A stretch of 37,222 bases of DNA from an uncultured virus (IMG/VR IMGVR_UViG_2049941000_000876) (taxonomy: Duplodnaviria > Heunggongvirae > Uroviricota > Caudoviricetes), in the IMG/VR virus record IMGVR_UViG_2049941000_000876; one strand, written 5' to 3'. A model generated the notes under the pieces. That model was not told the origin of the DNA. It worked only from the letters and a program-made list of their open reading frames with translations, and searched no databases. How positions within the stretch are numbered: the stretch's first letter is position 1; each line of letters opens with the position of its first letter. Made by a program: the position numbers and the translations under genes. Below are positions 3,646 through 33,914 of the stretch, in pieces.

Positions 3646-4362
3646 ATGTATGGGTATATTTATAAAACTACAAATCTGTATAATGGCAAAATTTATATTG
3701 GTCAACATAGAAACTCTAAATTTAATCCTGATTACTATGGTAGCGGCATAAGACTTAATAATATAATTGCTAAATATGGCATTGAAAATTTTTGTGTTGA
3801 AATGCTGGAACCGTGTGAAACTGAGAAAGAATTAAATATTAAAGAGCAGTATTGGATAGCAAAACTAAATTCAATGGATAGGAATATAGGATATAATCTT
3901 ATGTCAGGCGGCTATAAAGTTAGAGGCATAAAATTATCAGAGCAGTCCAAACAAAGTATTAGTTCTACACTAAAAGAATACTTTAAAACGCATGATAACC
4001 CTAGAAAAGGTGTACATCTTACAGACACAACAAAAGAGAAGTTAAGACAGGCTAATCTCGGTAAAAAGTATTCAGACGAAGTAAGGGCAAAGCACAGAGG
4101 AAAAGTTGCTTGGAATAAAGGAACTCATCTTACAGATAAACAAAAGCAACATTTAAGAGAAGTTAATCTTGGTAAAATTGCCCATGATAAAAGGTCCCAT
4201 ATAATCTATCAATTAGATTTTAATGGTAATATAGTAAACTCATTTCCGTCTTTACGACAGGCATCAATAAATACTGGATTTAGCAGTATTTGTATTCGTA
4301 GAGTTTGCGAAGGAGTTAGAAAACAATCACATGGGTTTATATGGAAATATGATAAACCATAA
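3646..4362 (+). CDS. Free-standing GIY-YIG homing endonuclease with NUMOD3/NUMOD1-like modules
   Basis: GYIYKTTN...IYIGQH, YYGSG, EQYWI, GYN; repeated HLTDxxK..LR.. units; C-terminal FPSLRQAS...GFIWKY. Confidence 0.9.
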   Translation: MYGYIYKTTNLYNGKIYIGQHRNSKFNPDYYGSGIRLNNIIAKYGIENFCVEMLEPCETEKELNIKEQYWIAKLNSMDRNIGYNLMSGGYKVRGIKLSEQSKQSISSTLKEYFKTHDNPRKGVHLTDTTKEKLRQANLGKKYSDEVRAKHRGKVAWNKGTHLTDKQKQHLREVNLGKIAHDKRSHIIYQLDFNGNIVNSFPSLRQASINTGFSSICIRRVCEGVRKQSHGFIWKYDKP

Positions 4363-4378
4363 ATTTAAAGGAGGTAAT

Positions 4379-4639
4379 ATGGAAGGATATATTAAAATAG
4401 AGGAACTTGCTATGCGCATTGATTCTTCGGTGCAAACAATTAACAACTGGTATAAATGGAAAAGAGAAAATCCTGAACATGAACTTGCATCTCTTTTACC
4501 CGACTATACACAAGAAGGAAATAGGCAGACAAGATATTGGAGTACAAAAGATATATGGAAGCTTATTGAGTTTAAAACTGCTGTTGTACATGGTAGAAAC
4601 GGAATTATGGGCTCATCTAAAAGAAAGGAGAAAATTTGA
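4379..4639 (+). CDS. Small HTH DNA-binding protein
   Basis: AAGGAGG SD before ATG 4379; IEELAMRIDSSVQTINNWY helix-turn-helix pattern. Confidence 0.65.
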   Translation: MEGYIKIEELAMRIDSSVQTINNWYKWKRENPEHELASLLPDYTQEGNRQTRYWSTKDIWKLIEFKTAVVHGRNGIMGSSKRKEKI

Positions 4640-11252: not shown

Positions 11253-11923
11253 TGCGATTTAGTTTTGAGGACGCAGATAAGTATGGTTCAACAGGTGGTA
11301 GTAAGACAAATTTCTTTTCATTGAAGGATGATGGAGATAAAGCATATGTTCATCTTTTAGGAGATGATATGAATGATTTTCCTGGATATGCAGTGCATAG
11401 AGTTCCTGTAGGAGATGGTCATAGATATGTAAACTGTCTTAGAGAAGCAGGAGCACCTGTTACAGATTGTCCTTTCTGTGCATTGGGAAAGAGTGATCCA
11501 GAGATTAGTAAGGTTCATGCAAAGCTCTTTATTCCGCTTTATGACTGTGATACTGATGAGGTAAAGATATGGGAGAGAGGAAAGCAGTTCTTTGGTGAGC
11601 TTGCAAGTTTCTGTTCACATAATCCTGAGGCATCTAAAGTTATCACAGAGATTGAGAGAAGAGGAAAGAAAGGCGATACAAATACCTCTTACAGACTGTA
11701 TGAAACTAAAGAGAATGATGATTTTGATATGCAGAATGTTATAGATGATGTTCCACAGATTCTTGGAGATATTATTCTTGATAAGACAAAAGCAGAGATG
11801 GAGCAGTATCTAAAGACAGGAAAGTTTGAAGATTCTCAGCAAGATACAGGAGTAGTAAGAAGAGGAAATACAGAAAGACGTACTCCATCAAGAAGAGAAA
11901 GAACAAACGAAGATGATTATTGA
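11252..11923 (+). CDS. Single-stranded DNA-binding protein (gp32-like)
   Basis: FFSLKDDGD, H..YVNC..CPFC zinc ligands, VKIWERG, ERRGKKGDTNTSY, acidic/aromatic tail NEDDY. Confidence 0.75.
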   Translation: MRFSFEDADKYGSTGGSKTNFFSLKDDGDKAYVHLLGDDMNDFPGYAVHRVPVGDGHRYVNCLREAGAPVTDCPFCALGKSDPEISKVHAKLFIPLYDCDTDEVKIWERGKQFFGELASFCSHNPEASKVITEIERRGKKGDTNTSYRLYETKENDDFDMQNVIDDVPQILGDIILDKTKAEMEQYLKTGKFEDSQQDTGVVRRGNTERRTPSRRERTNEDDY

Positions 11924-12020
11924 TTGAGTTTCATTATGCCCTTGGAAGTTTACGGACTGACCATGAAAGCTTATTCTTGACCCCATCCCTCAAGAGTGTG
12001 AGAAAGGCAACTCCCCAAAA

Positions 12021-12093
12021 TGCGCCGTAGTACAAATGGTTAGTACATAGCACTTTGACTGCTAGAATAAGAGTTCGATTCTCTTCGGTGTAG
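12021..12093 (+). tRNA. tRNA-Gln (UUG), CCA not encoded
   Basis: Acceptor TGCGCCG/CGGTGTA; D stem GTAC/GTAC; anticodon arm TAGCA-CTTTGAC-TGCTA; T arm AAGAG-TTCGATT-CTCTT. Confidence 0.9.
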
Positions 12094-12096
12094 TTA

Positions 12097-12274
12097 TCGA
12101 CAAGACGAGGGTAAATCGAAAAAACGTTGAGTAGATTTATTCAGAGCCAACCTACATGAAAAGGTCATGCAGATGAGGTCGCAGATAAAATCAGACGTTG
12201 ATAGTTCGCAACTATCTGATATCCACTAGCTAGAAAAATCGTAGAAACGTGCTGGTGTGAAAAGGCAAAGTCGA
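12097..12274 (+). ncRNA. Multi-stem structured RNA of unknown class
   Basis: Closing TCGAC/GTCGA plus four internal hairpins; lies between tRNA-Gln and tRNA-like element A. Confidence 0.45.
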
Positions 12275-12278
12275 GAAA

Positions 12279-12372
12279 CAGTGTGTGGCGGAATAGGTAG
12301 ACGTTAATCAGATGCGGTAGTGCTAAAGCAATATCAATGCGTCATGTAAGGTGCAAATCCTTACCACACTGA
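12279..12372 (+). ncRNA. tRNA-like element A (no anticodon arm)
   Basis: CAGTGTG/CACACTG acceptor; TGGCGGAATAGGTAGACGT D arm; GTAAGG-TGCAAAT-CCTTAC T arm. Confidence 0.75.
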
Positions 12373-12426
12373 TTGACAAGTGTTCTTCTTTTCTTGTCAT
12401 AGGGTTTTCTCCATTGTCATAAGAGT

Positions 12427-12517
12427 GATGCAGTGGCGGAATAGGTAGACGCAGGGTATAGAAAGTAGTTGACGAACTAGCCTCGTTATTATAGAGTGCA
12501 AATCTCTATCTGCATCA
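12427..12517 (+). ncRNA. tRNA-like element B (no anticodon arm)
   Basis: GATGCAG/CTGCATC acceptor; same D arm as element A; ATAGAG-TGCAAAT-CTCTAT T arm. Confidence 0.75.
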
Positions 12518-12571
12518 TCCCCTATATGGGGCTGAAATTTTTTTCATTGCTTTATCCTTAACCAGGATGGT

Positions 12572-12654
12572 AGCTTGTTAGCTCAATTGGAAGAGCACCG
12601 TGCGCACATAAAAACAACGAGAGGTGTATAGAGGTTCGAATCCTCTACAAGCTG
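12572..12654 (+). ncRNA. tRNA-like element C (degenerate anticodon arm)
   Basis: AGCTTGT/ACAAGCT acceptor; GCTC-AATTGGAA-GAGC D arm; AGAGG-TTCGAAT-CCTCT T arm; unpaired oversized anticodon region. Confidence 0.75.
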
Positions 12655-12673
12655 TTCCCTTAGTGAGATGAGG

Positions 12674-12889
12674 GATGTATGTACCTAACCCGTTGGTATT
12701 ATTAAACGATATGATTAACGCCAACAATAAAAACTTGTAGCGGATGCTACTTACATATCGAAGTAGCATTGGAACAATTAGTTGATGTTTACCCTAAACA
12801 CAATCACAATAGGTATGTTTTTTCTTTTTGCAACCGCTACATACATCGGAAGTTTAATGTTAAGCAGTACGGTCACTGCGACAAGGGTT
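12674..12889 (+). ncRNA. Structured, possibly pseudoknotted RNA upstream of the polymerase operon
   Basis: GATGTATGTA/TACATACATC, TGTAGCGG/CCGCTACA, ATGCTACTT/AAGTAGCAT and TACCTA/TAGGTA complementarities. Confidence 0.5.
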
Positions 12890-12916
12890 TATAAGATGAT
12901 AAAGAGGTAATTAGAT

Positions 12917-13132
12917 ATGAAATGTACACACAATGATTGTTTCACTTGTCCATATCCAGATTGTATAGCTGGTGCAAAAACAGTTCCTAATAAGTCTGTA
13001 GTAAAGAAGGACAAAGCAAAGATATATAAATCTGAATATGATAGACAGAGATATCAAAAGAACAAAGATAAAATATTAGCTAAGTATCGTAAACGAAGGG
13101 ATGAGGAAAAGAGAAATGCAACCACTATTTGA
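12917..13132 (+). CDS. Small Cys4 zinc-binding basic protein
   Basis: GAGG SD; CTHNDCFTCPYPDC then basic helix; paralog at 24784. Confidence 0.7.
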   Translation: MKCTHNDCFTCPYPDCIAGAKTVPNKSVVKKDKAKIYKSEYDRQRYQKNKDKILAKYRKRRDEEKRNATTI

Positions 13133-15386
13133 GATAAAGAACACTAAAAGTAATGACATTGATATTTTACAGAAATCAAAAATGAGAAATAAAATTGTTA
13201 CCACTACAAATAAAAGTAGTGGTAATATTGCTAATAGAATAAAAATAATCGTGGCTAAAGTAGAGACCGCACTTGGTAAATATAAAGATGAAACTTTACT
13301 CATTCAAGATGAGCAAGTGCTCCATGATTATATTGATAAGTGTATTGCTAATGGAATATATGGAATAGATACAGAGACAACAGGACTTAATCCTTTATTA
13401 GATGAGTTGGTTGGTGTAAGTATTTATACACCTGGAGAGAAAACAGCTTATATACCTATAAATCATGTATCGTATGTTACTGGACAAAAAGTAAAGAATC
13501 AGTTATCATTAGAAGTAGTAGGAAAAGAACTTGCAAGATTACTTGGTATAAATTGTGATATGTTCAATGCCCCATTTGATATCAGATTTATCAAGAATCA
13601 TACAGGTACAAGATTAAAATGTACATGGGACGCATCTATAGCTTCAAGATGTTTAAATGAGAATGAGCCAAATAAGGGCTTAAAGAAGTTACATCAGAAA
13701 TATGTATTAAAGGGTCAGGAAGATGCTTTTAAGTTTGATGACCTATTTAAGGGTATAAGCTTTGCACTTATTCCTATCAAGACAGCTTCATTATATGCAG
13801 CCCATGATGCAAAGATTACATATGAGTATGCAGAATATCAGAGAAAATATCTTAGATTAGACCACGAAAGAGAAGATATGCGAAACATAGCTTGGGTATT
13901 TCATAACATAGAGATGCCTATAGTGGATGTTGTAATAGATATGGAAGACACTGGCATAGAGTTTGACATGGAATATAATAAAGAGCTTAAAGAAAAGTAT
14001 CATGCCTTGTTGAATGAGAAAGAAGAGAACTTCCATAAGCTATGCGAGATGTATAGAGAAGAGATTGATAATTATGATGGAAAAGTAAAGCTAGATGACC
14101 CAATAAATATTCAGTCTGTACCTCAGTTGCAAGTGTTACTTTATGATATTGCAAAATTACCTTTGTTCTTTGACAAGAGGCAGAAAAAAGAAACAAGAAG
14201 TACAGCAGAAGAAGCACTAAAGAAATTAAAGAATCCTATCGCAGATGCCGTATTAGAGTATCGTTCATTCTCAACATTAGTAAGTACATTTATAGATAAA
14301 CTTCCAGAGTGTGTCAATCCTAATGATGGACGTATTCATTGTAAGTTTAATCAATATGGAGCAGACACAGGAAGATTTTCTAGTCAGGATCCAAATATGC
14401 AGAATATCCCATCCCATGATAAAAATATCAGAAAGATGTTCAGAGCTAGTAAAGGATATGTAATGATGTCCGCAGACTTCTCACAGCAAGAGGTTAAAGG
14501 TATGGCTCAGATGTGCGGAGATGAAACAATGGCAGAAGCTTTTAGACAAGGCAAAGATTTCTACGCACAGATAGCAAGTGTGGCATTTAATTATCCATAT
14601 GAAGATTGTTTAGAGTTCAGACCAGATGGCACAACTAATCCAGAGGGTAAAGAGAGAAGAAGTCAAGCAAAGTCTATTCTGTTGGGTATAAACTATGGAC
14701 GTGGGGCTGCAAGTATCGCTGAACAGCTGGGATGTACAAAAGAGAAAGCAGAACAAATAAAAGAAGATGTATTTTTAGGATTTCCAGCTATAGCTAAGTT
14801 TGAACAAGATAGTTTTGAGATGGCAGAGACATTAGGTTATGTAACTACACTTTGGGGCAGAAAAAGAAGATTGCCAGATATGATGTTGCCAGATTATGAG
14901 TTTCAATGGGCAGATAAATCTGCATCAGATGATCCACTTGATTTTGACAGCGAGTTGCCAGAAGAAGTGCCTGATGAGATTATCAATAAATATCTTAGAA
15001 AACTATCCAAATGTTGGGGCGCTCAGAAGCGAAAGATATTTGAAGAGGCTAATGCAGAGGGTGTGTGGATTATAGATAACACCAAGAAGAAAGCAGATGC
15101 TAGTAGGCAGTGTGTTAATGCTCGTATTCAAGGCACAGCCGCTGACCAAGCTAAGTTAGCTATGATTGCATTACATGATGATGAAAGATTGAAAGAATTA
15201 GGCTTTAGAATACTCATTCCTGTACACGATGAAGTTATAGCAGAATGCCCTAAGGAAAATGCAAAAGAAGTGGCAGAAAGATTCGCTTATATAATGTCTC
15301 ATTCAAGCGGTGAGAAGTTTACAATTCCCATTTCATGTGACGTTGCCATTTCAGAACAGTGGTATGGAGAGGAAATAAAACTATGA
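13116..15386 (+). CDS. polA: Family A DNA polymerase (3'-5' exonuclease + polymerase; no 5'-3' exonuclease domain)
   Basis: DTETTG, FNAPFD, YAAHDA exonuclease motifs; TGRFSS..PNMQNIP; ADFSQQE (A); KSILLGINYG (B); VHDE (C); start 13116 chosen from GAGG spacing (13101 is the alternative). Confidence 0.95.
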   Translation: MQPLFEIKNTKSNDIDILQKSKMRNKIVTTTNKSSGNIANRIKIIVAKVETALGKYKDETLLIQDEQVLHDYIDKCIANGIYGIDTETTGLNPLLDELVGVSIYTPGEKTAYIPINHVSYVTGQKVKNQLSLEVVGKELARLLGINCDMFNAPFDIRFIKNHTGTRLKCTWDASIASRCLNENEPNKGLKKLHQKYVLKGQEDAFKFDDLFKGISFALIPIKTASLYAAHDAKITYEYAEYQRKYLRLDHEREDMRNIAWVFHNIEMPIVDVVIDMEDTGIEFDMEYNKELKEKYHALLNEKEENFHKLCEMYREEIDNYDGKVKLDDPINIQSVPQLQVLLYDIAKLPLFFDKRQKKETRSTAEEALKKLKNPIADAVLEYRSFSTLVSTFIDKLPECVNPNDGRIHCKFNQYGADTGRFSSQDPNMQNIPSHDKNIRKMFRASKGYVMMSADFSQQEVKGMAQMCGDETMAEAFRQGKDFYAQIASVAFNYPYEDCLEFRPDGTTNPEGKERRSQAKSILLGINYGRGAASIAEQLGCTKEKAEQIKEDVFLGFPAIAKFEQDSFEMAETLGYVTTLWGRKRRLPDMMLPDYEFQWADKSASDDPLDFDSELPEEVPDEIINKYLRKLSKCWGAQKRKIFEEANAEGVWIIDNTKKKADASRQCVNARIQGTAADQAKLAMIALHDDERLKELGFRILIPVHDEVIAECPKENAKEVAERFAYIMSHSSGEKFTIPISCDVAISEQWYGEEIKL

Positions 15387-16228
15387 ACACAGCAGTATTC
15401 ATATGTACACATGGAAGACCAAATTCACAACATACATTACATCTATTGAGAAATAGTGGATATACTGGTAAAATATATTTGATAGTAGATGATGAGGACA
15501 ATACACTTCAAGAGTTAATGTTAAAGACTTATGGGCAAGCTCAGATAGTAGAATTTTGTAAGCAAGAATATATAACTAAATCTGACACCGGAACGAATGA
15601 AAATCAGCGTAAGTGTATTTTATACGCTAAGAATTTTTGCGAAGACCTGGCGCAAAATATGAAGCTGGACGCATATGTTATAGCTGATGATGATATATTA
15701 AATTTTAGATTTAGATATCCTGAAGATGGTAGTTTGAAAAGTCAGAAAGTATTGACAACAATGGATGAAGTAATGGATGCTTATTATCAGGTCATGATTG
15801 ACTGTGATATGGTAGCAACAGGCTTTGGATTTACTCAATTCTATTTCTCAGGTTCAGAATCATTTGGCAATGAGAATATGCAAAAGTACAGAGTGCCTTA
15901 TAATTTTGTATTTAGAAATGCGAAGCATAGAGTAGATTGGATGAGTTGGTTCGGTGAAGATATAATAACAGCAGTATACTATGGAAGAATAGGTCAGTTG
16001 TGGACAGCACTACCATATGTTCAGCAAGAGATTGTAGCTTTAGCATCAGCAAGTGGTGGAATGAAAGATACTTATGACGGAAACTCTAGTGCAAGATTAG
16101 CTATGCAAAATGTTATGTATCTTCCTGCAGAGCTTAAAGCATATCTATATAAGGGCAAATTTATGGCATCTATAAAGAGAGAGCAAGCTTTTCCAAAGCT
16201 AATCAGTTCCAGTTTTAAGAAGCAATAA
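15383..16228 (+). CDS. Putative DNA glycosyltransferase (TET-associated/GREB1-like GT-A family)
   Basis: ATGA-coupled to polA; ICTHGRP, IVDDED, YAKN, ADDDI, GED, SGGMKDTY, FPKLIS; paralog of 16697..17563. Confidence 0.7.
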   Translation: MNTAVFICTHGRPNSQHTLHLLRNSGYTGKIYLIVDDEDNTLQELMLKTYGQAQIVEFCKQEYITKSDTGTNENQRKCILYAKNFCEDLAQNMKLDAYVIADDDILNFRFRYPEDGSLKSQKVLTTMDEVMDAYYQVMIDCDMVATGFGFTQFYFSGSESFGNENMQKYRVPYNFVFRNAKHRVDWMSWFGEDIITAVYYGRIGQLWTALPYVQQEIVALASASGGMKDTYDGNSSARLAMQNVMYLPAELKAYLYKGKFMASIKREQAFPKLISSSFKKQ

Positions 16229-16272
16229 GATGTTATATAATATTTATAGATATGAAGTTGAAAGGAGATAAT

Positions 16273-16710
16273 ATGAAGCAATTATTCGCAGACGAAAGTG
16301 TTAAAAATAATCCAATGGGAGATGATACAAAGTATTCAAGAGCAATAAGAGTACCTCAGTATGAGCCTAAGAATGAGAAGCCTATACTCGCATCAGTGTA
16401 TGATATCAATAAATATAGCAAGCTAATGGCTAGAATAAATAAATCTAATGTATCAGAAGAAGAGAAGAAATTTCTTAAATTCGCCGCATCAAGACATATC
16501 GTATTTAATTATAGTAAGATAGCAGATTATTATGCCCATGCAAGCGCAGAGATGCAGGAGCTTATGGAAGAATCAGCACTTGTTATTCTTGATATAGATG
16601 ATGCCATAGCTAATGGATATATAGCTCTTTCAGAAAAGATGCAACAACTTATTGAAGAAGAGAAAGCTAGGGCTGCAAAAGCTAAGGAGAATAAAGATGA
16701 GCAAACTTGA
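16273..16710 (+). CDS. Helical accessory protein between the two glycosyltransferases
   Basis: AAAGGAG SD before ATG 16273; PQYEP, RHIVFNYSKIADYYAHA, SALVILDIDDAIANGY. Confidence 0.75.
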   Translation: MKQLFADESVKNNPMGDDTKYSRAIRVPQYEPKNEKPILASVYDINKYSKLMARINKSNVSEEEKKFLKFAASRHIVFNYSKIADYYAHASAEMQELMEESALVILDIDDAIANGYIALSEKMQQLIEEEKARAAKAKENKDEQT

Positions 16711-17563
16711 TGATTTTGCAGTAATGATATTATGTCATGGTAGACCAGACAATACACCAACTTTTGATACACTAAGAAAGTATGGATATACAGGTAGAAT
16801 TATTATAGTTTGTGATGATGAGGATAAAACATTATCTGAGTATCAGAGAATATATCCAGAAGTACAAGTATTCAGTAAGGATTATGTAGCTACATATATG
16901 GACCCTATGGATAATTCTAATGATAGAAGATGTGCAGTATATGCCAGAAATGCTTGTTTCGATATAGCAGAAAGGTTAGGATTAAAATATTTTGCGGAAT
17001 ATGATGACGATTACACTTCACATCCATATAGATGGGAAGAAAATGGTGTTCTCTACAGAAGTTTACTTGCTAACTTGGATGAAGTGTTTAAAGCGTATAT
17101 GGACTTTATGGAGACAAGCGAAGAGATATATTCAATCGCATTCGGACAACCGGGAGACTTTATTGGTGGTTGCGGAAGTAGATTACATAGAGAAAGATAT
17201 AGACGAAAATGTATGAACAGTTGGATATGTAAGACAGATAGACGTTTTACATTTAATGGTAGAATGAATGATGACCAGCTTACATATAGTTTATATGGTA
17301 TGCGTGGAAAGATATTTCTTACATTCGACTTTATGATGATAGACCAGCCTGAAACACAATCAGTAAAGGGCGGAATGACAGATATGTATTTAGGGGCAGG
17401 TACTTATCAGAAAACATTTTTCTCGATTATGTGTTGTCCATCATTTATAAAAGCCGGTATGATGGGAGATAGATATTATAGAATACATCATAAAGTATCA
17501 CATGAAAATGCTTATCCAAAGATAATATCAAGTAAATATAAGAAAAAAGGAGAAGAAGGATGA
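16697..17563 (+). CDS. Putative DNA glycosyltransferase (TET-associated/GREB1-like GT-A family)
   Basis: AAGGAG SD; ILCHGRP, VCDDED, YARN, YDDDY, GRMNDD, KGGMTDMY, RIHH, YPKIIS. Confidence 0.72.
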   Translation: MSKLDDFAVMILCHGRPDNTPTFDTLRKYGYTGRIIIVCDDEDKTLSEYQRIYPEVQVFSKDYVATYMDPMDNSNDRRCAVYARNACFDIAERLGLKYFAEYDDDYTSHPYRWEENGVLYRSLLANLDEVFKAYMDFMETSEEIYSIAFGQPGDFIGGCGSRLHRERYRRKCMNSWICKTDRRFTFNGRMNDDQLTYSLYGMRGKIFLTFDFMMIDQPETQSVKGGMTDMYLGAGTYQKTFFSIMCCPSFIKAGMMGDRYYRIHHKVSHENAYPKIISSKYKKKGEEG

Positions 17564-18693
17564 AGTTTACAATTAACACAGCGCAGTTTCAAAACATGGT
17601 AGCAAAAGCAGTAAAGGGTGCAAGCATGAATAATGATTTATTCATTACTCAGCTTATATCTATTTCATTAAAAGATAATACCCTTACACTTACCACAACA
17701 GATAATAATAATTATCTGTATGTAAAGGCTAACAAGGTAGCAGGAGATGATTTCTCAGTAGTAGTTGGAGTAGATAAGTTTAGTAAACTTATAGCAAAGC
17801 TCACCTGTGAGAATGTAACATTAGAAGTGCCTGATTCAGAAGATGGAGAGTTAGATAAGCTGATTATCAAAGGTAATGGTAAGTATATTATTGAGTTGCC
17901 TTATGATGAGAATGGAGAGCTTATTGAGTTCAGTGATCCACTTGATGCTAGTAATGATAAGTTCTGGAGCAGTGGCACAACTCAGCTTTCAACAATTAAG
18001 CACATTCTCGCCACAGCAAAAGCCTCATTGTTAGTAAATAAGAACGATTCATGCTATGCAAACTATTATGTAGGCAATCGTGTAGTTGCTACAGATACAT
18101 ATAAGATTTGTGGTGTTGACATTAAGATTTTTGATACACCTAAGCTTATATCACCTGAACTTATGGACTTGATTGATGTAATGTCAACGGAGAATATTGA
18201 CATCAGATATAGTGACGATGTTGTAATTTTTGATGGCGCAGATGTAGTAGTTTATGGTGTAGTAGAAGAAGGTATAGAAAATTATCCTATTGATGCTATC
18301 TCGGGATTGCTTGATGAAGAGTTCCCTAGCTCATGTAAGATTGATAAATCAGCACTTATCCAGATGCTTGAAAGACTTACCTTGTTTGTAGATGAGTTTG
18401 ACAAGAACAGTGTATATCTTACATTCACTAAAGAAGGACTTATAGTATCATCTAAGCAAGATAGTGGTTCAGAGACAATTCCTTATTCTGATAGTAAGAA
18501 CTTCAAGGACTATACCTGCTGTCTTGACATCGACTTGTTTAAGACACAGGTTAAAGCATATCAAGATGAAGCTATCGAGATGCTTTATGGTAAAGAGAAC
18601 AGCCTCAAATTTGTAGGTGGAAACACAAAGCAGATTTTAGCTCTTGCTGATGATGATAGAGACACAGAAGAAGCTCCATTTAATGAGGAGTAA
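17560..18693 (+). CDS. dnaN: DNA polymerase III beta-type sliding clamp
   Basis: 377 aa; MKFTIN start, LTLTTTD, VVATDTYKI, NYP, LERL; three-domain length. Confidence 0.85.
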   Translation: MKFTINTAQFQNMVAKAVKGASMNNDLFITQLISISLKDNTLTLTTTDNNNYLYVKANKVAGDDFSVVVGVDKFSKLIAKLTCENVTLEVPDSEDGELDKLIIKGNGKYIIELPYDENGELIEFSDPLDASNDKFWSSGTTQLSTIKHILATAKASLLVNKNDSCYANYYVGNRVVATDTYKICGVDIKIFDTPKLISPELMDLIDVMSTENIDIRYSDDVVIFDGADVVVYGVVEEGIENYPIDAISGLLDEEFPSSCKIDKSALIQMLERLTLFVDEFDKNSVYLTFTKEGLIVSSKQDSGSETIPYSDSKNFKDYTCCLDIDLFKTQVKAYQDEAIEMLYGKENSLKFVGGNTKQILALADDDRDTEEAPFNEE

Positions 18694-26794: not shown

Positions 26795-27147
26795 CTATAC
26801 AAGAAAAGATACGGCAGAGAAGAAGGCAGATGTTAGTTCATTCTTATATTTATTATGAGCTTGATGATAATATTGTTTCAGATGCACAGTGGGCAAAATG
26901 GGCAAAAGAATTACAAGAGCTACAAGAGAAATACCCAAAAGAATCATCAGAAGTAGAGGATTATGAGCAGTTCAAAGATTGGGACGGATCGAGTGGCGCA
27001 TTTTTAAATTTTTCGGAGGCTATAAAGACCGTGGCAAAAATTCTTCTAGGAATAAAAAGTCCTAGTCTACATCAGATAGAATCAAAAAAGAAAGTACAAG
27101 AGATTCCCAAAAAGAAATTAAAATCAGATACACGGAGTTTGTTCTAA
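26791..27147 (+). CDS. Stand-alone NAD+-dependent DNA ligase subdomain Ia-like protein
   Basis: HSYIYYELDDNIVSDAQW...ELQELQEKYP resembles the LigA N-terminus; no KxDG adenylation domain. Confidence 0.75.
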   Translation: MTIQEKIRQRRRQMLVHSYIYYELDDNIVSDAQWAKWAKELQELQEKYPKESSEVEDYEQFKDWDGSSGAFLNFSEAIKTVAKILLGIKSPSLHQIESKKKVQEIPKKKLKSDTRSLF

Positions 27148-27152
27148 ACGTG

Positions 27153-27180
27153 TTGACATTTACGTTGCATATAGTATAAT
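27153..27180 (+). promoter_or_regulatory. Sigma-A-type promoter
   Basis: TTGACA-16 nt-TATAAT followed by leader AACACATTTTGAAAGGAG. Confidence 0.78.
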
Positions 27181-27223
27181 GATATATGTAAATGATATAT
27201 AACACATTTTGAAAGGAGAAAAG

Positions 27224-27406
27224 ATGAATAAGCCAACGAAAGAACAGTTTGAAGAGTATGTAAGAATCAGAAATAGTGGTATAACTAATATGTGGGATAT
27301 CACATTTATAGTAAGCATCTCTAATACAGGACTCACAGAAGATAATTGTTTTTATATCATGGATTATTTTGATGAGTTAGCAGAAGAGTATGAGGTGGCA
27401 GTATGA
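27224..27406 (+). CDS. Small DUF5049-like protein
   Basis: AAAGGAG SD; IRNSGITNMWD motif. Confidence 0.6.
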   Translation: MNKPTKEQFEEYVRIRNSGITNMWDITFIVSISNTGLTEDNCFYIMDYFDELAEEYEVAV

Positions 27407-27744
27407 CCCGTCCAACACGATTTTATTCATCTCGTCAAGAAAAGAAAGTTGCAAAAGCTATAAATGGTAGACAGACAGCAAACTCTGGTGCAAGTGCATG
27501 GTCAAAGGGAGATGTAACTTCGGATATCATGTTAGTGGAATGTAAAACACACACTGAGTTAAGAGAGCAGTTTACCATTAAAAGAGATTGGATATTAAAG
27601 AATGAAGAAGAAGCATTCCAGATGGGCAAAAGATATTCAGCATTAGCGATAGACTTCGGTGATGGTGAGCAACACTATCTTATAGACCAGAGATTGTTTC
27701 TTGAATTATTAGAGCATTTAAGGGAGGTCAATAATGAAAATTGA
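27403..27744 (+). CDS. Small PD-(D/E)xK nuclease (resolvase-like)
   Basis: QEKKVA...SGA...KGDV...LVECK. Confidence 0.7.
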   Translation: MTRPTRFYSSRQEKKVAKAINGRQTANSGASAWSKGDVTSDIMLVECKTHTELREQFTIKRDWILKNEEEAFQMGKRYSALAIDFGDGEQHYLIDQRLFLELLEHLREVNNEN

Positions 27745-27874
27745 CATTCTTGAATATCTAAAAGAGGAGGAGAAAAAGAAAAGAGAGCGGGAAATACAAT
27801 TACATGAGGAACTAGAGTATATGTATGAATTGGGATTATATAATCCACATGAAGATGCAGGAGATAGAATATGA
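27734..27874 (+). CDS. Small acidic hypothetical protein (46 aa)
   Basis: GGAGG SD; coupled to neighbours. Confidence 0.55.
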   Translation: MKIDILEYLKEEEKKKREREIQLHEELEYMYELGLYNPHEDAGDRI

Positions 27875-28047
27875 CAGGCAGTAATTATAGAGACGATGTA
27901 AATGATATTTTTGACTACATGAAAGATGATTTAGCTACCATTATATCTGAGATTGATACTTTGCTTGATATGGAAGATATTGAGGATATCAAGATACATC
28001 TTTCAGACCTTAAGAATACTGCAATAGATGTGAGGATGAGATTATGA
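27871..28047 (+). CDS. Small acidic hypothetical protein (58 aa)
   Basis: AGGAG SD; ATGA overlaps at both ends. Confidence 0.6.
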   Translation: MTGSNYRDDVNDIFDYMKDDLATIISEIDTLLDMEDIEDIKIHLSDLKNTAIDVRMRL

Positions 28048-28271
28048 ACGAAGAACATTTCAGTAAGCGGGATAAAAGAATATATGACCATCTTGTAGAT
28101 TACGGCAGTATTACAAGTTGGGAAGCTATTAAAGAGTATGGTTGCACCAGACTTTCTGATGCCATTTATCATCTCAGAAAGAAAGGACATAACATTGTCA
28201 ATGAGCAGGAGAGTAGCGTCAACAGATATGGCGAGAAAGTAAGTTATGTGAGGTACGTATTATATGACTAA
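28044..28271 (+). CDS. Winged-HTH small protein
   Basis: GSITSWEAIKEYGCTRLSDAIYHLRKKGHNI. Confidence 0.75.
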   Translation: MNEEHFSKRDKRIYDHLVDYGSITSWEAIKEYGCTRLSDAIYHLRKKGHNIVNEQESSVNRYGEKVSYVRYVLYD

Positions 28272-28842
28272 GAGAGATTTAGTAAAGTGGTTAGAGAAGA
28301 AAAAGCCTGAAGCTATAGCTAAAGCAGATAAGGCTAGAGAGAAAGCAATCCTTGATGCCAAAGAGTTAGAGTATAAAGAGATAGGATTTGATGAGTTTTT
28401 AGAAGATGCGATACCGCATTTACAGAGATTCATCAAGAAGTATGGTGAGTTTATTGACAAGGTCAATGCTCTTGATGGATATTCAATGAGCAGATATAAC
28501 TGGCATTACGGCTATAATGAGTTCGTATCAAGATTTGGAGATATAGTGACAATACGAAAGAATATAGAGGAAGTAATTCATCTTGATACTGAGAGATACA
28601 GGAAAGCAAGGGATAATGCTAATTCCAATAGACGGGAAGTAGAATCGACATATAATACAGTTATAGAGACTGTTAAGAATCTTCCTACAGCTAAAGATGG
28701 ATTAGAGTATCTAAAGAAGCTCGGTTTTGATGTGTCAGAGATTGAGCCTGCAGAGAAGAAAAAACAGTTACCTGCAACCATCAGTGTCAATGTTGATGTG
28801 AAGTATCTACTATTAGATAACAAGGAGAACGATGAGAAATGA
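28264..28842 (+). CDS. Hypothetical helical protein
   Basis: 192-aa ORF coupled to both neighbours. Confidence 0.75.
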   Translation: MTKRDLVKWLEKKKPEAIAKADKAREKAILDAKELEYKEIGFDEFLEDAIPHLQRFIKKYGEFIDKVNALDGYSMSRYNWHYGYNEFVSRFGDIVTIRKNIEEVIHLDTERYRKARDNANSNRREVESTYNTVIETVKNLPTAKDGLEYLKKLGFDVSEIEPAEKKKQLPATISVNVDVKYLLLDNKENDEK

Positions 28843-29378
28843 AGTCATTAGCAGTAAAGTACAGACCTAAGACATTTGATGATGTTCTTGGACAAGATGC
28901 AGTAAAGATTATTTTAAAGCAACAGTTGGAGAGCGGCAATATTCATTCAGCTATGTTATTCTGTGGACCATCTGGTGATGGAAAGACAACCACTGCAAGA
29001 ATCTTTGCAAATGAATTAAATCGTGGTAAAGGTAATCCTATTGAGATGGATGCAGCCAGTCATAATGGTGTAGATGATGTCAGAGAGATTTGTAAAATGG
29101 CAGGTACAAAAGCAATAGATGTAGGACCAGATGGATATAAGATATTCATAATAGATGAAGCACACTCTATTTCCAACACTGGTTGGCAAGCATTTTTAAA
29201 GACGATAGAAGAACCGCCTGCTAGAGTAGTATTTATCTTTTGCACAACGGATCCTCAGCGTATCCCTCCAACTATACTAAGTCGTGTCCAACGGTACAAC
29301 TTTACTAAGGTATCAGAAGGTGATATAAAGAAACGATTGTTGCAAATTTTAGAGACTGAAGGATATACAAGAAAATGA
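28839..29378 (+). CDS. dnaX: Clamp loader gamma/tau-like ATPase, N-terminal fragment
   Basis: LAVKYRPKTFDDVLGQ, GPSGDGKTT, EMDAAS, IIDEAH, LKTIEEPP, TILSRVQ; ends at LETEGYTRK. Confidence 0.92.
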   Translation: MKSLAVKYRPKTFDDVLGQDAVKIILKQQLESGNIHSAMLFCGPSGDGKTTTARIFANELNRGKGNPIEMDAASHNGVDDVREICKMAGTKAIDVGPDGYKIFIIDEAHSISNTGWQAFLKTIEEPPARVVFIFCTTDPQRIPPTILSRVQRYNFTKVSEGDIKKRLLQILETEGYTRK

Positions 29379-30196
29379 GTAGTGTATATTGTATAAGAAA
29401 TGTGATGACGGGTTGTGTATATGTTGGCAGTACCACAAATTTTGATAATCGTATCTCAATTCATATTGATAGGCTGTCTAAACGAAATCATCCGAATAGA
29501 AGTTTACAGAATGATTGGTTATCTTATGGTGAAAATTCATTTGAAATCTTTATTTTAGAGGAAGTTTTAGATGACAGCATACTTATTAGTCGAGAGCAAT
29601 ATTGGATAGACTATTATGGTGGCATAAATTCAGATACGACATATAATATGAGGGATGCAGGTAGTTCTGGAACGTTTTGTGATGAGATTAAAAAGTCCAT
29701 TAGTAATTCTAAATCAGGTGTGCCATTATCAGAAGAACATCGCAGGCATATAAGTGAAAGCGGTAAAGGCAAAGTAATTTCAGAGGAAACACGTTATAAA
29801 ATAAGTGAATCAAATAAGATTACTCATAGTTTACCAGAGTATATTAAACGACAAAGTGAATATACAAAACAGCAGTGGTTAAATCCTGAGTATCGTGAGC
29901 TGATGACAAATCTGTGGAAAGGTCGCAAACATACAGATGAGACCCGTAAAAAGATGTCAAAAAGTGCCAAGCGAAGGGCTAATACAGAAGAATATAAATT
30001 AAAAGTGCAAAAAGAGCATGGTAAACCTGTTGTAAAAATTGACCCGTTTTCGCATGAGATTGTTGCCATTTATCCTTCTGTTTTGTTTGCATCAAAAGAG
30101 AATGGATTAAATCATAACACAATAAGAAATTACTGTGAGAAAAATAAAATATTAGCAGGATATATTTGGAGGTATATAGATGCAAAAAACATATGA
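29375..30196 (+). mobile_element. GIY-YIG homing endonuclease gene inserted in dnaX
   Basis: SVYCI...VYVGS, EQYWID, YN; NUMOD3-like SEEHRRHISES and HTDETRKKMSKS; C-terminal GYIWRY; overlaps both dnaX fragments. Confidence 0.88.
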
Positions 30197-30695
30197 TGAA
30201 GGAGCAGTGTCATATATAGCTAAGTTAGCAGATGGTGGAGTACGATTAGCCATTCAGTATCTTGAGAAATGTCTGGCATATAGTGATGAGCTTACTACAG
30301 AGAATGTTGTTAAGGCACTTAACGTCACAAACTATGATAACTTCATTCATCTTACTGACCTTATTCTTTCTCAGAATAAGTCTGAGCAGATTAAATTTTT
30401 AGATGAAATTTACGCATCCGGAGTTGATTTTAAGCAGTTTTTGAAGCAGTATGTACAATTTATACTTGATGTAAATAAAACGTTGATTTTAGACGATTTA
30501 GACGAAGCATTTAAGTATATCAGTTTGCCTAAAACATCAGAAGTAGAAACATGGTTGATAACGACATTGAAAGATGGAGATTTGGAGACCTATAATAGAC
30601 TGCTCAGCCATTTAATAAAGTTGGATGCAGATTGTAAGTATTCACAGAACCCAAAAGTTGATATAGAGTGTGGAATATTATTATTTGAGGTGTGA
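30180..30695 (+). CDS. dnaX: Clamp loader gamma-like subunit, C-terminal fragment (lid + collar)
   Basis: YDEGAVSYIAKLADGGVRLAIQYLEKC sensor-2 helix; own GGAGG SD at 30168-30172. Confidence 0.85.
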   Translation: MQKTYDEGAVSYIAKLADGGVRLAIQYLEKCLAYSDELTTENVVKALNVTNYDNFIHLTDLILSQNKSEQIKFLDEIYASGVDFKQFLKQYVQFILDVNKTLILDDLDEAFKYISLPKTSEVETWLITTLKDGDLETYNRLLSHLIKLDADCKYSQNPKVDIECGILLFEV

Positions 30696-30955
30696 TTATG
30701 AAGATAATGTGGGACGAAAATCAAGTAAAGAGATACTATGACAACAATGGCGAAGAGATACACGCTGGCAATTATGTTGTATTTGGTTCAGCAGAAGAGG
30801 CAGAAGCACATAATATAGAAAGAAAGCCAGAAAAAGTATATCTTTGTGCCGATGAAGAAACACTTGGTACAGATGCTACTAATCCCAAGTGGTGGTATGG
30901 AATTTATCCATTTAATGAAGCTGATGAAGTATATCTAGTTGAGGTAAAAGAATGA
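30692..30955 (+). CDS. Hypothetical protein
   Basis: GAGGTG SD; YYDNNGEEIHAG resembles a YopX-like segment; exact start uncertain. Confidence 0.6.
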   Translation: MIMKIMWDENQVKRYYDNNGEEIHAGNYVVFGSAEEAEAHNIERKPEKVYLCADEETLGTDATNPKWWYGIYPFNEADEVYLVEVKE

Positions 30956-31755
30956 TTGGACAACAAGCGTTGTTAGATAAGATTGACCGGATGATAGAAA
31001 CGGAAAGATTTCCTAGATTCTCCATTGTAGTTGGAGAAAGGGGGATGGAGCATGAAGATGTGGCAAAATATGTCGCATATAAGATGAAGTGTTCCATTAT
31101 AGTTTTACCTGATGTTAGAGTAGATACTATCAGAGATATGATAGCACAGGCATATAAACTTCATAAGCCAACTGTGTTCTGCATACCTCATGCAGATGAT
31201 ATGTCGGTCAATGCCAAAAATGCTATTTTGAAGGTAGTAGAAGATGCCCCCAATAAAGCATATTTTGTAATGTGTTTAGAGGATATCAACAATACTTTAG
31301 CCACTATTGTAAGTAGGGGTGTAGAGTTAAGAATGATAAGTTGTGGTGCCAAAGATATTTATGATTATGTGAAGAGTTTAAAGCCAGAGCTTAAAGATAT
31401 AGAGCTTTATGTGAATATCTGTGATACACCAGGTGATGTACAATATTTTATGTCACATGATATACATAATTTCTATAACTATGCAAAATATGTAGTTGAG
31501 AATATGACACAGATGTCAGGTGCAGAAGTGTTTAAGCTATCTGAAAAGTTGGCGTTAAAAGATGAGGATGATAAGTTTGACCTCAGATTATTTCTTAAAT
31601 GCCTTCAAATTCTATATATCGAACGAACAGAATATGCACTAGCATATCAGGTAGGAAGATATTTAGAAGATTTAAAAATAAAAGGTATCAATAAGTCTAT
31701 GCTTGTAGACAATATGATACTCCAAGTGAGGAAAGTATGGAAATCACAGAAGTAA
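30952..31755 (+). CDS. holB: Clamp loader delta'-like subunit
   Basis: MIGQ start, degenerate Walker A, VDTIRDMI, ADDMSVNAKNAILKVVEDAP, ATIVSRG. Confidence 0.8.
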   Translation: MIGQQALLDKIDRMIETERFPRFSIVVGERGMEHEDVAKYVAYKMKCSIIVLPDVRVDTIRDMIAQAYKLHKPTVFCIPHADDMSVNAKNAILKVVEDAPNKAYFVMCLEDINNTLATIVSRGVELRMISCGAKDIYDYVKSLKPELKDIELYVNICDTPGDVQYFMSHDIHNFYNYAKYVVENMTQMSGAEVFKLSEKLALKDEDDKFDLRLFLKCLQILYIERTEYALAYQVGRYLEDLKIKGINKSMLVDNMILQVRKVWKSQK

Positions 31756-32648
31756 AAAATCACATTAAGACAGGGCAGTATGATAAGTTTTATATTTTTT
31801 GTGGTGAAGAACATGCCGTGATGAAGATATATCTAAAAATGATGGCAAAAGATAAAGAGCTTACATATGTAGATAATCTTGTGGATTTAATGTCCGGAGT
31901 AAGAACAAAATCATTAGTTCCAGTGCACCATTTATATGTAATAATGAATGATAAAGAGTTTCTGACCAATGAGAAGATGTGGCAGAAATTCAAAGGACTA
32001 AAAGATGATATAGTGGTATTTTATTATACCAATGCAGATAAACGATTAAAGTTTTGGAAACACTTTAAGGATAAAGTGGTGGAGTTTAATAAGCTTGATG
32101 ATAAAATACTGATGAAGTACATTCAAAAAGAGTGTGAATTTAGAGAGGATTTATGCTTGCGACTTATTGAAGCCTGTGACCATAGTTATGGACGAATCCT
32201 TTTAGAGTTAGATAAGGTCCGAATGTACTCCAATTCTGAAAAAGTGACGGCGAACAGTGTGTTAGAGAAATTTCTTGACAGCGGTGTCATATTTAATCAG
32301 CCAAAAGATGCTATATTTGATTTTGTAGCCGCAGTGCTAGAAAGAGTACCATCTAAAGCATATAATCTATTACAACAATCTAAAGCTATTGGAGAAGCTA
32401 ATCTGACACTCCTGGCTGTGCTTTATAACAATATTAAAACACTTTTACAAGTGCAATCATCAAGAGACTATAAGGCGCTAGGGATTAACTTTTGGCAAGC
32501 AAAGAATGTTCTTCCATTTAAGAATAATTATAGTAATGGTGAGTTAGTCAATGCTATGCAGATTATCAGAACTGTGGAAAAAGGAATAAAGACAGGAACA
32601 GTACCTGATGAGTTAAGCGTGGAATATGTATTAGTTCAGATTATGTGA
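31737..32648 (+). CDS. holA: Clamp loader delta-like subunit
   Basis: FYIFCGEE, DKRLKFWK, LELDKV, IFDFVAAV, EKGIKTG. Confidence 0.8.
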   Translation: MEITEVKNHIKTGQYDKFYIFCGEEHAVMKIYLKMMAKDKELTYVDNLVDLMSGVRTKSLVPVHHLYVIMNDKEFLTNEKMWQKFKGLKDDIVVFYYTNADKRLKFWKHFKDKVVEFNKLDDKILMKYIQKECEFREDLCLRLIEACDHSYGRILLELDKVRMYSNSEKVTANSVLEKFLDSGVIFNQPKDAIFDFVAAVLERVPSKAYNLLQQSKAIGEANLTLLAVLYNNIKTLLQVQSSRDYKALGINFWQAKNVLPFKNNYSNGELVNAMQIIRTVEKGIKTGTVPDELSVEYVLVQIM

Positions 32649-32662
32649 AAGGAGGAAAGAGT

Positions 32663-32947
32663 ATGAGATGTCCTAATTGTGGGAGTGACAATCTAGCAGT
32701 AATGGAGACAATCAATCAGCCCGAAACTACATTAAGACAAAGGAAGTGTAGTGATTGTGGTTTTAAGTTTTATACTAAAGAGATTGTGGTGCCTGCTGAT
32801 ACTGTTAAGCCTGTATTTGATGAGTGGATAAGAGAGCGGTCAAGAAAATGCAGAGCGAAGAAGAAAGGGATAAACTATGATGTCAGATTTGAAGATGGAA
32901 GAGAACAACCCGTTACCCCGAAAAAACCTACACAACCTCTGTTTTAG
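32663..32947 (+). CDS. NrdR-N/Ogr-like zinc-ribbon protein
   Basis: AAAGGAGG SD; MRCPNCGS...ET...RQRKCSDCGFKFYTKE; no ATP-cone; ends TQPLF. Confidence 0.75.
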   Translation: MRCPNCGSDNLAVMETINQPETTLRQRKCSDCGFKFYTKEIVVPADTVKPVFDEWIRERSRKCRAKKKGINYDVRFEDGREQPVTPKKPTQPLF

Positions 32948-33058
32948 ATGTGGTCGAAAGCTCAAATCTGAGCAGTCGAAAATACTGGGTATGGGACCCA
33001 CTTGTTATAAGAAGTGGAAGAATGAAAACAATATGAAACCATTGATATAGGAGGGAAT

Positions 33059-33298
33059 ATGGCAGCAGAATTTCCATTAGTTTGTCCATTTTGTGATGAG
33101 TTGGCATACAGAAAAAAGGGTTATCAGCAGATAGTACTTCCTCATAAGATTTATACTCCTCGTATCTGTGCTATGGGTCATGAATTTTATTCCGTAGAAG
33201 AAATACCAGAGGATCAATCGGCGATAGTAAAAGAAATAAGGGAGATAAAGAGGGATGCAATCGAGTGGAAGAAACAACTTAGAAATCCTGAAACATGA
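33059..33298 (+). CDS. Second zinc-ribbon protein
   Basis: AGGAGG SD; CPFC...RICAMGHEFYSVE. Confidence 0.65.
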   Translation: MAAEFPLVCPFCDELAYRKKGYQQIVLPHKIYTPRICAMGHEFYSVEEIPEDQSAIVKEIREIKRDAIEWKKQLRNPET

Positions 33299-33914
33299 TT
33301 TAGATGCACTAATGAAATGGAGAACTATTCCACATCAAGAGACAGTAGATACAGGATATTTAGATTTGTGCAGGAAGTTTAATGCCAGGTATTTAAACTA
33401 CCGGATGCCACTTTTTGAAGAACGCAAATTTGCTCCATTTACTCCAAAAGTAGATTCAGATAAATCATTGTTATTATTTAGTGGTGGTAAAGTAAGTCTT
33501 GCTACAGCCTTGTGGTTGAAAGAAATGGGCAAAGATATTGAGCTTCTATATTTTTATGATAAAGAATATGAGGCTGTACTGGATCTTATGGGCGTGAAAC
33601 AGTTAGGAATACCTTATACTGCAAAATATGTTAAAATCCCGGATAATGAGTTTGCTGGAATGCACATGGTCCATTATGCTCTGGAGTTTGCTTTAGAGAA
33701 ACACTTAAAACCCTCCATTTATATGGGTTACTTTGAGTTTGCCTTGATGGACAATAATCCAAAGCGAAACTGGCGGTATAGCAAAGATTTTATAGAGGCA
33801 TATGCCAACGTGGCAAAGAAGTATATTGAGGGTGTAGAGGTACTTGGGGTATTGCCAAATTATGCTGTTGTCGATGATATATTGTCAAAATATAATTATG
33901 AAGCAATACAGTAA
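33255..33914 (+). CDS. PP-loop (QueC-like) fold protein with variant motif
   Basis: LLLFSGGKVSLATAL resembles SGGxDS; no C-terminal QueC Cys cluster. Confidence 0.55.
   Translation: MQSSGRNNLEILKHDLDALMKWRTIPHQETVDTGYLDLCRKFNARYLNYRMPLFEERKFAPFTPKVDSDKSLLLFSGGKVSLATALWLKEMGKDIELLYFYDKEYEAVLDLMGVKQLGIPYTAKYVKIPDNEFAGMHMVHYALEFALEKHLKPSIYMGYFEFALMDNNPKRNWRYSKDFIEAYANVAKKYIEGVEVLGVLPNYAVVDDILSKYNYEAIQ

Follow-up and report, generated by a model that had tools for sequence, protein, structure and literature searches.

The closest described systems are phage genes in pieces, of which passages of Edgell et al. 2010 (PMC2988022) name nrdA with mobE in phage Aeh1, the T4 topoisomerase genes 39 and 60 with mobA, and gene 43 of Aeromonas phage 25, split into 43A and 43B with a seg-like gene. 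Crona et al. 2011 (PMC3045599) report that the Aeh1 NrdA fragments assemble through insertion-derived tails, which are essential interaction domains. Here, we analyzed a 37,222-nucleotide stretch of DNA from an uncultured tailed phage (IMG/VR record IMGVR_UViG_2049941000_000876, Caudoviricetes), hereafter the window, in which a phage clamp-loader gene is split in two by a GIY-YIG homing endonuclease gene (HEG). The arrangement belongs to the known genes-in-pieces kind, to which it adds a clamp loader as the host gene. We consider it likely that this is a split gene expressed without splicing, whose two chains re-form the lid bundle non-covalently and make up a working clamp loader.

The locus was first pointed out by a model that read the sequence alone (the original prediction) and knew of no such case for a clamp loader. 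Our search of the full-text literature, with subscription journals and supplements outside its reach, likewise found no endonuclease-split clamp loader without an intein. Two papers considered as precedents, PMC5587285 and PMC5434244, deal with other subjects in the passages retrieved, and passages of the Rephine.r paper (PMC8351571) treat fragment gene calls generically, leaving clamp loaders unmentioned.

Results

Anatomy of the split gene

The following features make up the split locus:

28839..29378, + strand, N fragment of a DnaX-like clamp loader, 179 aa, ending ...KRLLQILETEGYTRK before its stop codon (open reading frame, profile matches and structural model)
29375..29378, + strand, ATGA overlap, in which the N-fragment stop TGA (29376-29378) shares bases with the HEG ATG (29375-29377)
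29375..30196, + strand, GIY-YIG HEG, 273 aa, with the GIY-YIG domain at residues 2-82, NUMOD3 and the C-terminal end ...GYIWRYIDAKNI
30168..30172, + strand, GGAGG Shine-Dalgarno sequence (SD) of the C fragment, 7 nt before the ATG at 30180
30180..30695, + strand, C fragment of the clamp loader, 171 aa, starting MQKTYDEGAVSYIAKLADGGVR, with lid helices, sensor-2 R22 (GGVR) and the collar (oligomerization) domain

The HEG stop TGA lies at 30194-30196, which leaves an overlap of 17 nt with the C fragment. The two clamp-loader fragments are in the same frame, each start position being a multiple of 3, and the HEG is in frame +2. The open reading frame (ORF) list, its coordinates and the sequence thus agree with the original prediction, which had described the same N fragment, HEG and C fragment layout, with ATGA at 29375-29378, a 17-nt overlap and GGAGG at 30168-30172, and had placed the HEG in another frame than two intact fragments sharing one. 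Each fragment appears to have its own translation signals, the N fragment a start at 28839 and the C fragment GGAGG followed by 7 nt and ATG, while the ATGA overlap of the N stop and the HEG start looks like translational coupling.

The N fragment carries Walker A (GPSGDGKTT), Walker B (IIDEAH), sensor 1 (TTD) and an SRC-type arginine (SRV). The first lid helix (160-173) and a tail of 5-6 residues (GYTRK) close the N fragment. It matches PF13177 (6.7e-24), PF00004 (3.8e-15) and the clamp-loader profile phrog_5846 (6.5e-68; 380 positions), which is shared out between the two pieces: the N fragment covers profile positions 3-170 and the C fragment, which also matches PF12169 (2.1e-5), positions 175-286. 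With core motifs, sensor-2 lid and collar all found, the two fragments are best classed as a DnaX-like (gamma/tau) AAA+ subunit. The gene between them matches PF01541 GIY-YIG (1.8e-11, residues 2-82), PF07460 NUMOD3 (6.9e-7) and phrog_314 (2.9e-42), and is by these matches an endonuclease of the GIY-YIG type (I-TevI/Seg-like, phrog_314), with an N-terminal catalytic domain and a NUMOD-bearing DNA-binding region. It is free-standing, lying outside any intron or intein.

Uninterrupted relatives

Among named phages, the most similar clamp-loader genes are those of Streptococcus phages MS1 and Dp-1 and of Clostridium phage phiCTP1, whose products share 53-56% identity with that of the window. MS1 gp14 (342 aa), phiCTP1 gp65 (364 aa) and FA88 ORF66 (364 aa) are single ORFs that align to the N and then to the C fragment with no notable gap; within the single ORF of MS1 gp14, 21 nt separate the match to N residue 174 from that to C residue 4. 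Among IMG/VR loci, we compared the best 80 of 217 relatives retrieved with the N fragment. The two matches lie at most 87 nt apart in 74 of these 80 loci, a C match is missing in 3 and the gene is interrupted in the remaining 3. In the closest loci (L004-L006) the N part is 76-80% and the C part 71-74% identical to the window, and the uninterrupted ORFs encode 341-353 aa, as against 350 aa for the window N and C fragments together. The original prediction had read the two fragments as one continuous DnaX and had proposed a comparison with uninterrupted alleles; MS1 gp14 and the IMG/VR loci indeed run through the break.

No split allele was found in GenBank phage records, where all 13 listed records with both matches have them 0-90 nt apart or slightly overlapping. 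Megablast of 28264-32648 against GenBank phages returned zero matches, and a related-locus search with the C fragment returned three uninterrupted loci only, all of them known already. At E<=1e-20, at least 7772 full-length relatives were found, bacterial DnaX being within reach of this search as well. Since they are more numerous than the split ones, the split form is a frequent minority state among the relatives.

Four of the full-length relatives (P0189, P0201, P0230 and P0263) are 657-670 aa long, ~320 residues above other close full-length relatives. They match only 60-66% of the N query, at 73-82% identity, and an intein or some other in-frame insert may account for the extra length.

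Where the break lies in the protein

To place the break, both fragments were aligned with E. coli gamma (phmmer against PDB sequences). N residues 60-174 align to gamma 82-194, the alignment of the N fragment to gamma also taking in GKT, DE and SRx, and C residues 6-92 align to gamma 199-286, with GGVRLA of the C fragment falling on gamma GSLRDA, although the C-gamma sequence match is weak (E 0.06). The last aligned N residue, 174, and the first aligned C residue, 6, thus correspond to gamma 194 and 199. The AlphaFold2 model of the N fragment (pLDDT 91.7) ends in a helix at 160-173 followed by coil, and that of the C fragment (pLDDT 87.7) has coil at residues 1-6 before its first helix (7-17); the C model also matches E. 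coli gamma/tau chains with a Foldseek probability of 1.00 and a TM of up to 0.72. Because the first model ends helix-coil and the second starts coil-helix, the cut is predicted to fall in a coil of ~12 residues between two helices, presumably the first and second lid helices (domain II), going by the domain limits of E. coli gamma. The linker tolerates variation, as phiCTP1 has a 21-residue insertion at this very position.

The Walker A and B motifs, sensor 1 and the SRC arginine are accordingly encoded on the N chain, and the sensor-2 arginine and the collar on the C chain. Two points of the original prediction are borne out here: a break in the loop after the first lid helix, by the helix limits of the models and the alignment to gamma 194 and 199, and the location of Walker motifs and sensor-2 arginine on different polypeptides, by the gamma alignments and by the invariant residues described below.

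Recurrence of the break

The same linker is broken in 3 of the best 80 IMG/VR relatives, two carrying a second GIY-YIG lineage and one a methyltransferase gene, and in a further contig, L087. The GIY-YIG gene between the halves of L028 and L031 is 22-24% identical to the window HEG and was not matched when the latter was used as tblastn query. In L019, an N6/N4 DNA methyltransferase gene (2681-3364; PF01555, 2e-41) occupies the linker. L087 harbors an ortholog of the window HEG with 47% identity over the full length, flanked by halves 48% and 42% identical to those of the window; its contig was the sole close relative found in a metagenome scan with the HEG as query.

Free-standing fragments are also frequent among predicted proteins. 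Short relatives of the N fragment were limited to the best 120 of 876 at E<=1e-20, and 113 of these 120 are free-standing N fragments of 174-191 aa. All 113 stop 2-20 residues beyond the Glu at the end of the last helix, and 64 different tails occur among them. On the other side of the break, 34 of 36 short C relatives are free-standing C fragments of 165-180 aa that start a few residues before the A-x-x-Y-I-A-K-L-A-D-G-G helix.

Several further arrangements were seen around these loci. In L019, the overlap of the methyltransferase gene amounts to 17 nt at the N stop and to 26 nt at the C start. In L028 (4526-4581) and L031 (4523-4586), a spacer of 56-64 nt separates the N stop from the endonuclease start; the L028 spacer contains a perfect 17-bp inverted repeat directly before a GAGGTG SD and that of L031 a TTTACA...TATAAT-like pair, elements that may serve expression control of the endonuclease itself. 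In L091 (2810-2932 and 3816-4325; also L122), an endonuclease gene lies directly upstream of an uninterrupted clamp-loader gene. There, duplicated clamp-loader codons 3-43 precede the upstream endonuclease gene and a second endonuclease-like stretch follows the clamp-loader gene. In L089, L092, L094 and L095, too, the clamp-loader gene is flanked by endonuclease genes.

The junctions in other assemblies

The sequencing runs that match the window are bovine gut metagenomes. All four compared runs are available as contigs rather than reads, so that depth and ends are uninformative. Run X2 matches without a difference but may be the source of the window, and was not counted as independent. The remaining three runs (X5, X7 and X9) come from three other studies and contain contigs that bridge the junctions at 94.6-96.5% identity:

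X5 contig, 6234 nt, covers 29197-30295, 59 differences
X7 contig, 1273 nt, covers 29197-30205, 50 differences
X9 contig, 1896 nt, covers 29280-30286, 35 differences

No contig joint skipping the HEG was listed in the four compared runs; one X9 contig resembles an uninterrupted allele, with a loose end before 30215. A chimera of metagenome assembly would be conceivable given the metagenomic origin of the window and the fact that the sole run with 100% identity may be its own source. It is nevertheless extremely improbable, since contigs of three other studies bridge both junctions and L087 has the same architecture, as have L019, L028 and L031 with different inserts. The original prediction had named reads not supporting the junctions as a possible refutation; the contigs of the three other studies do support them.

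Absence of an intron or intein

A single chain might still be restored if an intron had escaped recognition, if translational bypass occurred or if the proteins were spliced in trans. Phage replication genes often contain introns, inteins or split inteins, and the four long relatives described above, at 657-670 aa, may carry in-frame inserts. We searched for Rfam intron families at positions 28600-30900 at E<=10, and in the split loci L019, L028 and L031 at E<=1, and found none. The HEG fills the entire gap and overlaps both fragments, so that zero non-coding bases are left and there is no room for an intron; a group I intron was rejected on both grounds. An intein was rejected because the HEG is out of frame with the fragments.

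For a split intein with trans-splicing, the non-homologous tails are too short: they measure ~5 residues on each side, and the two fragments together have the length of an uninterrupted allele. Intein halves need tens of residues, for which there is no room. Translational bypass was rejected since the HEG overlaps both fragments and the stop, SD and ATG at the junction mark separate translation. Finally, the inserts found at the break are unrelated genes (two GIY-YIG lineages and a methyltransferase), which makes a shared ribozyme implausible. We therefore regard restoration of a single chain as very unlikely. The original prediction had excluded an intron for want of non-coding bases and an intein on account of the frame; to this the Rfam search, the short tails and the combined length of the fragments can now be added.

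A predicted restart signal inside the endonuclease gene

The original prediction had located a GGAGG SD of the C fragment inside the HEG. This GGAGG, 7 nt before the ATG, is formed by the HEG codons TGG AGG TAT, which encode the C-terminal W-R-Y. The arrangement TGGAGGTA followed by 7 nt and ATG is conserved in all four endonuclease-split loci (the window, L087, L028 and L031) and thus in two endonuclease lineages. Among 25 related endonuclease genes, from other sites or L087, the W-R-Y ending occurs in one, namely that of L087, which lies in the split site. A possible trace of the same junction is found in P0116 (191 aa), a free-standing N fragment in which the N tail runs into the 17 C-terminal residues of an L028-type endonuclease (...KVGRTAGKLHWRYLDE). 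This suggests that the endonuclease was deleted and the junction kept.

Mobility of the endonuclease gene

Alleles with and without the HEG both exist. The contigs of X5, X7 and X9 further revealed a block, 94.6-96.5% identical to the window, outside which clamp-loader DNA is only 80-90% identical or too diverged to align at 80%:

29197..30295, + strand, likely co-conversion tract, comprising the HEG with ~180 nt of left and ~100 nt of right flank

A similar change in relatedness was seen within the N fragment when other alleles were compared with that of the window:

Split alleles with the GYTRK tail (P0038-P0043): residues 1-119, 72-81% identity; residues 120-179, 87-93%
Closest full-length alleles (P0157-P0169): residues 1-119, 82-94% identity; residues 120-174, 69-78%

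The switch at residue ~120 (nt 29196) coincides with the edge of the contig block at nt 29197. Such a mosaic is the pattern expected of homing with co-conversion, which would have extended ~180 nt to the left and ~100 nt to the right. On account of this mosaic, we take the HEG to be, or recently to have been, mobile.

The window contains a second GIY-YIG gene (3646-4362, + strand, 238 aa; phrog_314, 1.4e-41), which is 29% identical to the HEG of the clamp loader. It directly follows a SNF2-type helicase gene (1931-3622) and overlaps a small ORF (4331-4639).

Constraint on both halves

The split gene could be a dispensable relic, the insertion having destroyed the clamp-loader ATPase of the phage, with the host DnaX complex or a copy outside the window serving instead and the fragments persisting only as the insertion is recent or recurring. 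The mosaic described above shows that invasion can be recent, and the phage is seen as a 37-kb window rather than an entire genome. We looked at conservation in the 75 columns that reach 95% conservation or more among 116 full-length relatives. In these columns, the 113 intact split N fragments from the best 120 short relatives kept 8261 of 8475 cells (97.5%), all catalytic positions and hence all catalytic motifs included. G43, G46, G48, K49, T50, T51, D106, E107, T136, T137 and R149 are invariant in 43 N relatives. On the C side, all 38 free-standing C fragments compared have G19 and R22 (sensor 2), at 38-86% identity to the C fragment of the window. These values uphold the view of the original prediction that both fragments look intact, and show both to be conserved.

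The original prediction had also proposed dN/dS on both halves. Pairwise dN/dS of the window against L004-L006 was 0.08-0.14 for the N and 0.11-0.20 for the C fragment, within the range of 0.06-0.26 among uninterrupted alleles, with dS near saturation (1.1-2.6), so that the values are rough. The dN of the window lineage is not raised. Further points against a relic are the conservation of the SD and ATG of the C fragment across two endonuclease lineages, their apparent retention in P0116, where a 17-residue remnant is left, and the intact genes for delta', delta and the clamp. Taken together, the evidence makes a relic unlikely.

Several observations nonetheless count against a working two-chain loader. 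Pairwise dN/dS values mix split and unsplit time, and with homing and co-conversion the divergence of split alleles need not mean long residence of the split. Protein databases list called ORFs only, and decayed fragments are under-counted there. In L087, the one locus with an orthologous endonuclease at this site, the N fragment (2453-3001; the same contig as L117) carries two frameshifts and one stop at residues ~17-48, which favors a relic in that contig; the damage sits around the approach to Walker A, the rest of the N fragment, the endonuclease and the C fragment are intact, and the N fragment is either a real pseudogene or an assembly error. As for a substitute, no second intact dnaX was found within the 37-kb window; one may lie elsewhere in the phage, or the loader of the host may be used. 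Finally, separate translation, assembly of the chains and activity are inferred here from the genes.

Replication module and proposed mechanism

The split gene lies in the replication module of a tailed phage, with genes almost all on the + strand. PHROG matches in this module comprise a SNF2 helicase, DnaD-like and DnaC-like loaders, a DnaB-like helicase, a primase, SSB and a family A polymerase, and further a sliding clamp, a RecA/UvsX-like recombinase, two Holliday-junction resolvases and a ligase-like protein. The genes most directly related to the clamp loader are:

17560..18693, + strand, sliding clamp (processivity factor; phrog_947, 1.3e-26)
30952..31755, + strand, delta'-like clamp-loader subunit, 267 aa (profile matches)
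31737..32648, + strand, delta-like clamp-loader subunit, 303 aa (profile matches)

The split loader presumably acts on the sliding clamp at 17560..18693. Within 27000-33500, no strong terminator was predicted and promoter-like matches were not above those in shuffled sequences.

With a two-chain loader, the events are most likely as follows. A mobile, free-standing HEG sits in the variable linker between the first and second AAA+ lid helices, in an operon that would be transcribed as one unit and from which the gene would be expressed as two polypeptides. Translation of the N fragment would stop at ATGA, which probably permits a low level of coupled translation of the HEG. For the C fragment, ribosomes would start at its own SD and ATG, the SD being supplied by the last HEG codons. 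Lid helix 1 of the N chain would then pack non-covalently on lid helices 2-3 of the C chain, and a complete AAA+ module would hang from the collar. Three such pairs of N and C chains, with delta' and delta, would load the phage clamp.

Other features of the window were noted outside the clamp-loader locus. An ORF-poor region of ~1.1 kb (11923-13100) before the DNA polymerase gene contains tRNA-Gln(UUG) at 12021-12093 (ARAGORN and Rfam) and a second tRNA-like match at 12572-12654 (Rfam, 46 bits), which was not called by ARAGORN. Two full-length paralogues of phrog_842, annotated as beta-glucosyl-HMC alpha-glucosyltransferase (15359-16228 and 16652-17563, + strand), flank a ParB-like ORF (16252-16710). 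The paralogues are a hint of DNA hypermodification in this phage.

Discussion

The findings invite a broader, more tentative reading, in which the break is a maintained, exchangeable slot. The HEG would carry its own repair kit, consisting of the N stop, the W-R-Y codons that double as SD and the ATG of the C chain, and with this kit inside the HEG an essential AAA+ subunit could be cut without loss. A second GIY-YIG lineage and a DNA methyltransferase gene would later have occupied the slot, which would persist when the endonuclease decays. The sensor-2 arginine would come from a separate chain, and assembly would perhaps depend on ATP. We regard this as possible though clearly less probable than the plain two-chain loader it builds on. 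If true, it would provide a natural AAA+ protein with its sensor-2 arginine from a separate polypeptide, whose assembly could depend on bound ATP.

The clamp loader is a textbook example of an AAA+ machine, and its mechanism depends centrally on how the ATPase core, the sensor-2 lid and the collar are coupled. A natural cut between lid helices 1 and 2 would offer a ready-made system to ask how much of this coupling needs a covalent chain and whether ATP helps to hold the pieces together, and gut and rumen phages provide hundreds of sequence variants for this purpose. For the biology of mobile elements, the locus provides a widespread and apparently still active HEG that splits an essential gene while supplying the downstream restart, at an insertion site re-used by other cargo genes. 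There is also a consequence for annotation: the many phage metagenome calls of ~177 aa ("AAA family ATPase") and of ~170 aa ("gamma/tau") are halves of one subunit. What the present analysis adds is how abundant the split form is, that other genes have used the same site, and that a restart signal lies within HEG codons.

Compared with E. coli DnaX gamma/tau (PDB 1jr3, 1xxh, 3glf, 8gj0 and others), the phage protein has the same domain order and motifs, with the N fragment corresponding to gamma 6-194 and the C fragment to gamma 199-286. It is made of two chains where E. coli has one, and lacks both the zinc-module segment (~15 gamma residues between two aligned stretches are unmatched) and the tau extension.

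Among genes in pieces, the nearest parallel is nrdA-mobE of Aeh1, where, according to passages of Edgell et al. (PMC2988022), an essential gene is likewise cut into two ORFs by a free-standing HEG without RNA or protein splicing. In those passages the active site of the Aeh1 enzyme is shared between the chains; here, too, non-covalent assembly of the two polypeptides and a shared active site are to be expected. The host gene differs, being an AAA+ clamp-loader subunit here and ribonucleotide reductase there. So does the endonuclease, which is of the GIY-YIG type here, whereas mobE is HNH-type. The tails measure ~5 residues in our case, in contrast to the insertion-derived tails of Aeh1, described by Crona et al. 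(PMC3045599) as essential for interaction. Moreover, the present break is found again in very many uncultured phages, where the inserted genes differ.

The same passages of PMC2988022 present T4 genes 39/60 (with mobA) and Aeromonas phage 25 gene 43 as phage replication enzymes split at an endonuclease insertion and working as separate subunits. For gene 43, these passages allow that the split may predate the endonuclease, whereas in the clamp loader the co-conversion mosaic ties the junctions to the HEG block. Lastly, Dassa et al. 2009 (PMC2677866) describe fractured genes with split inteins and a free-standing endonuclease in the same order of N part, endonuclease and C part; the clamp-loader gene shares this order and differs in having no intein halves, which excludes that its chains are rejoined by trans-splicing.

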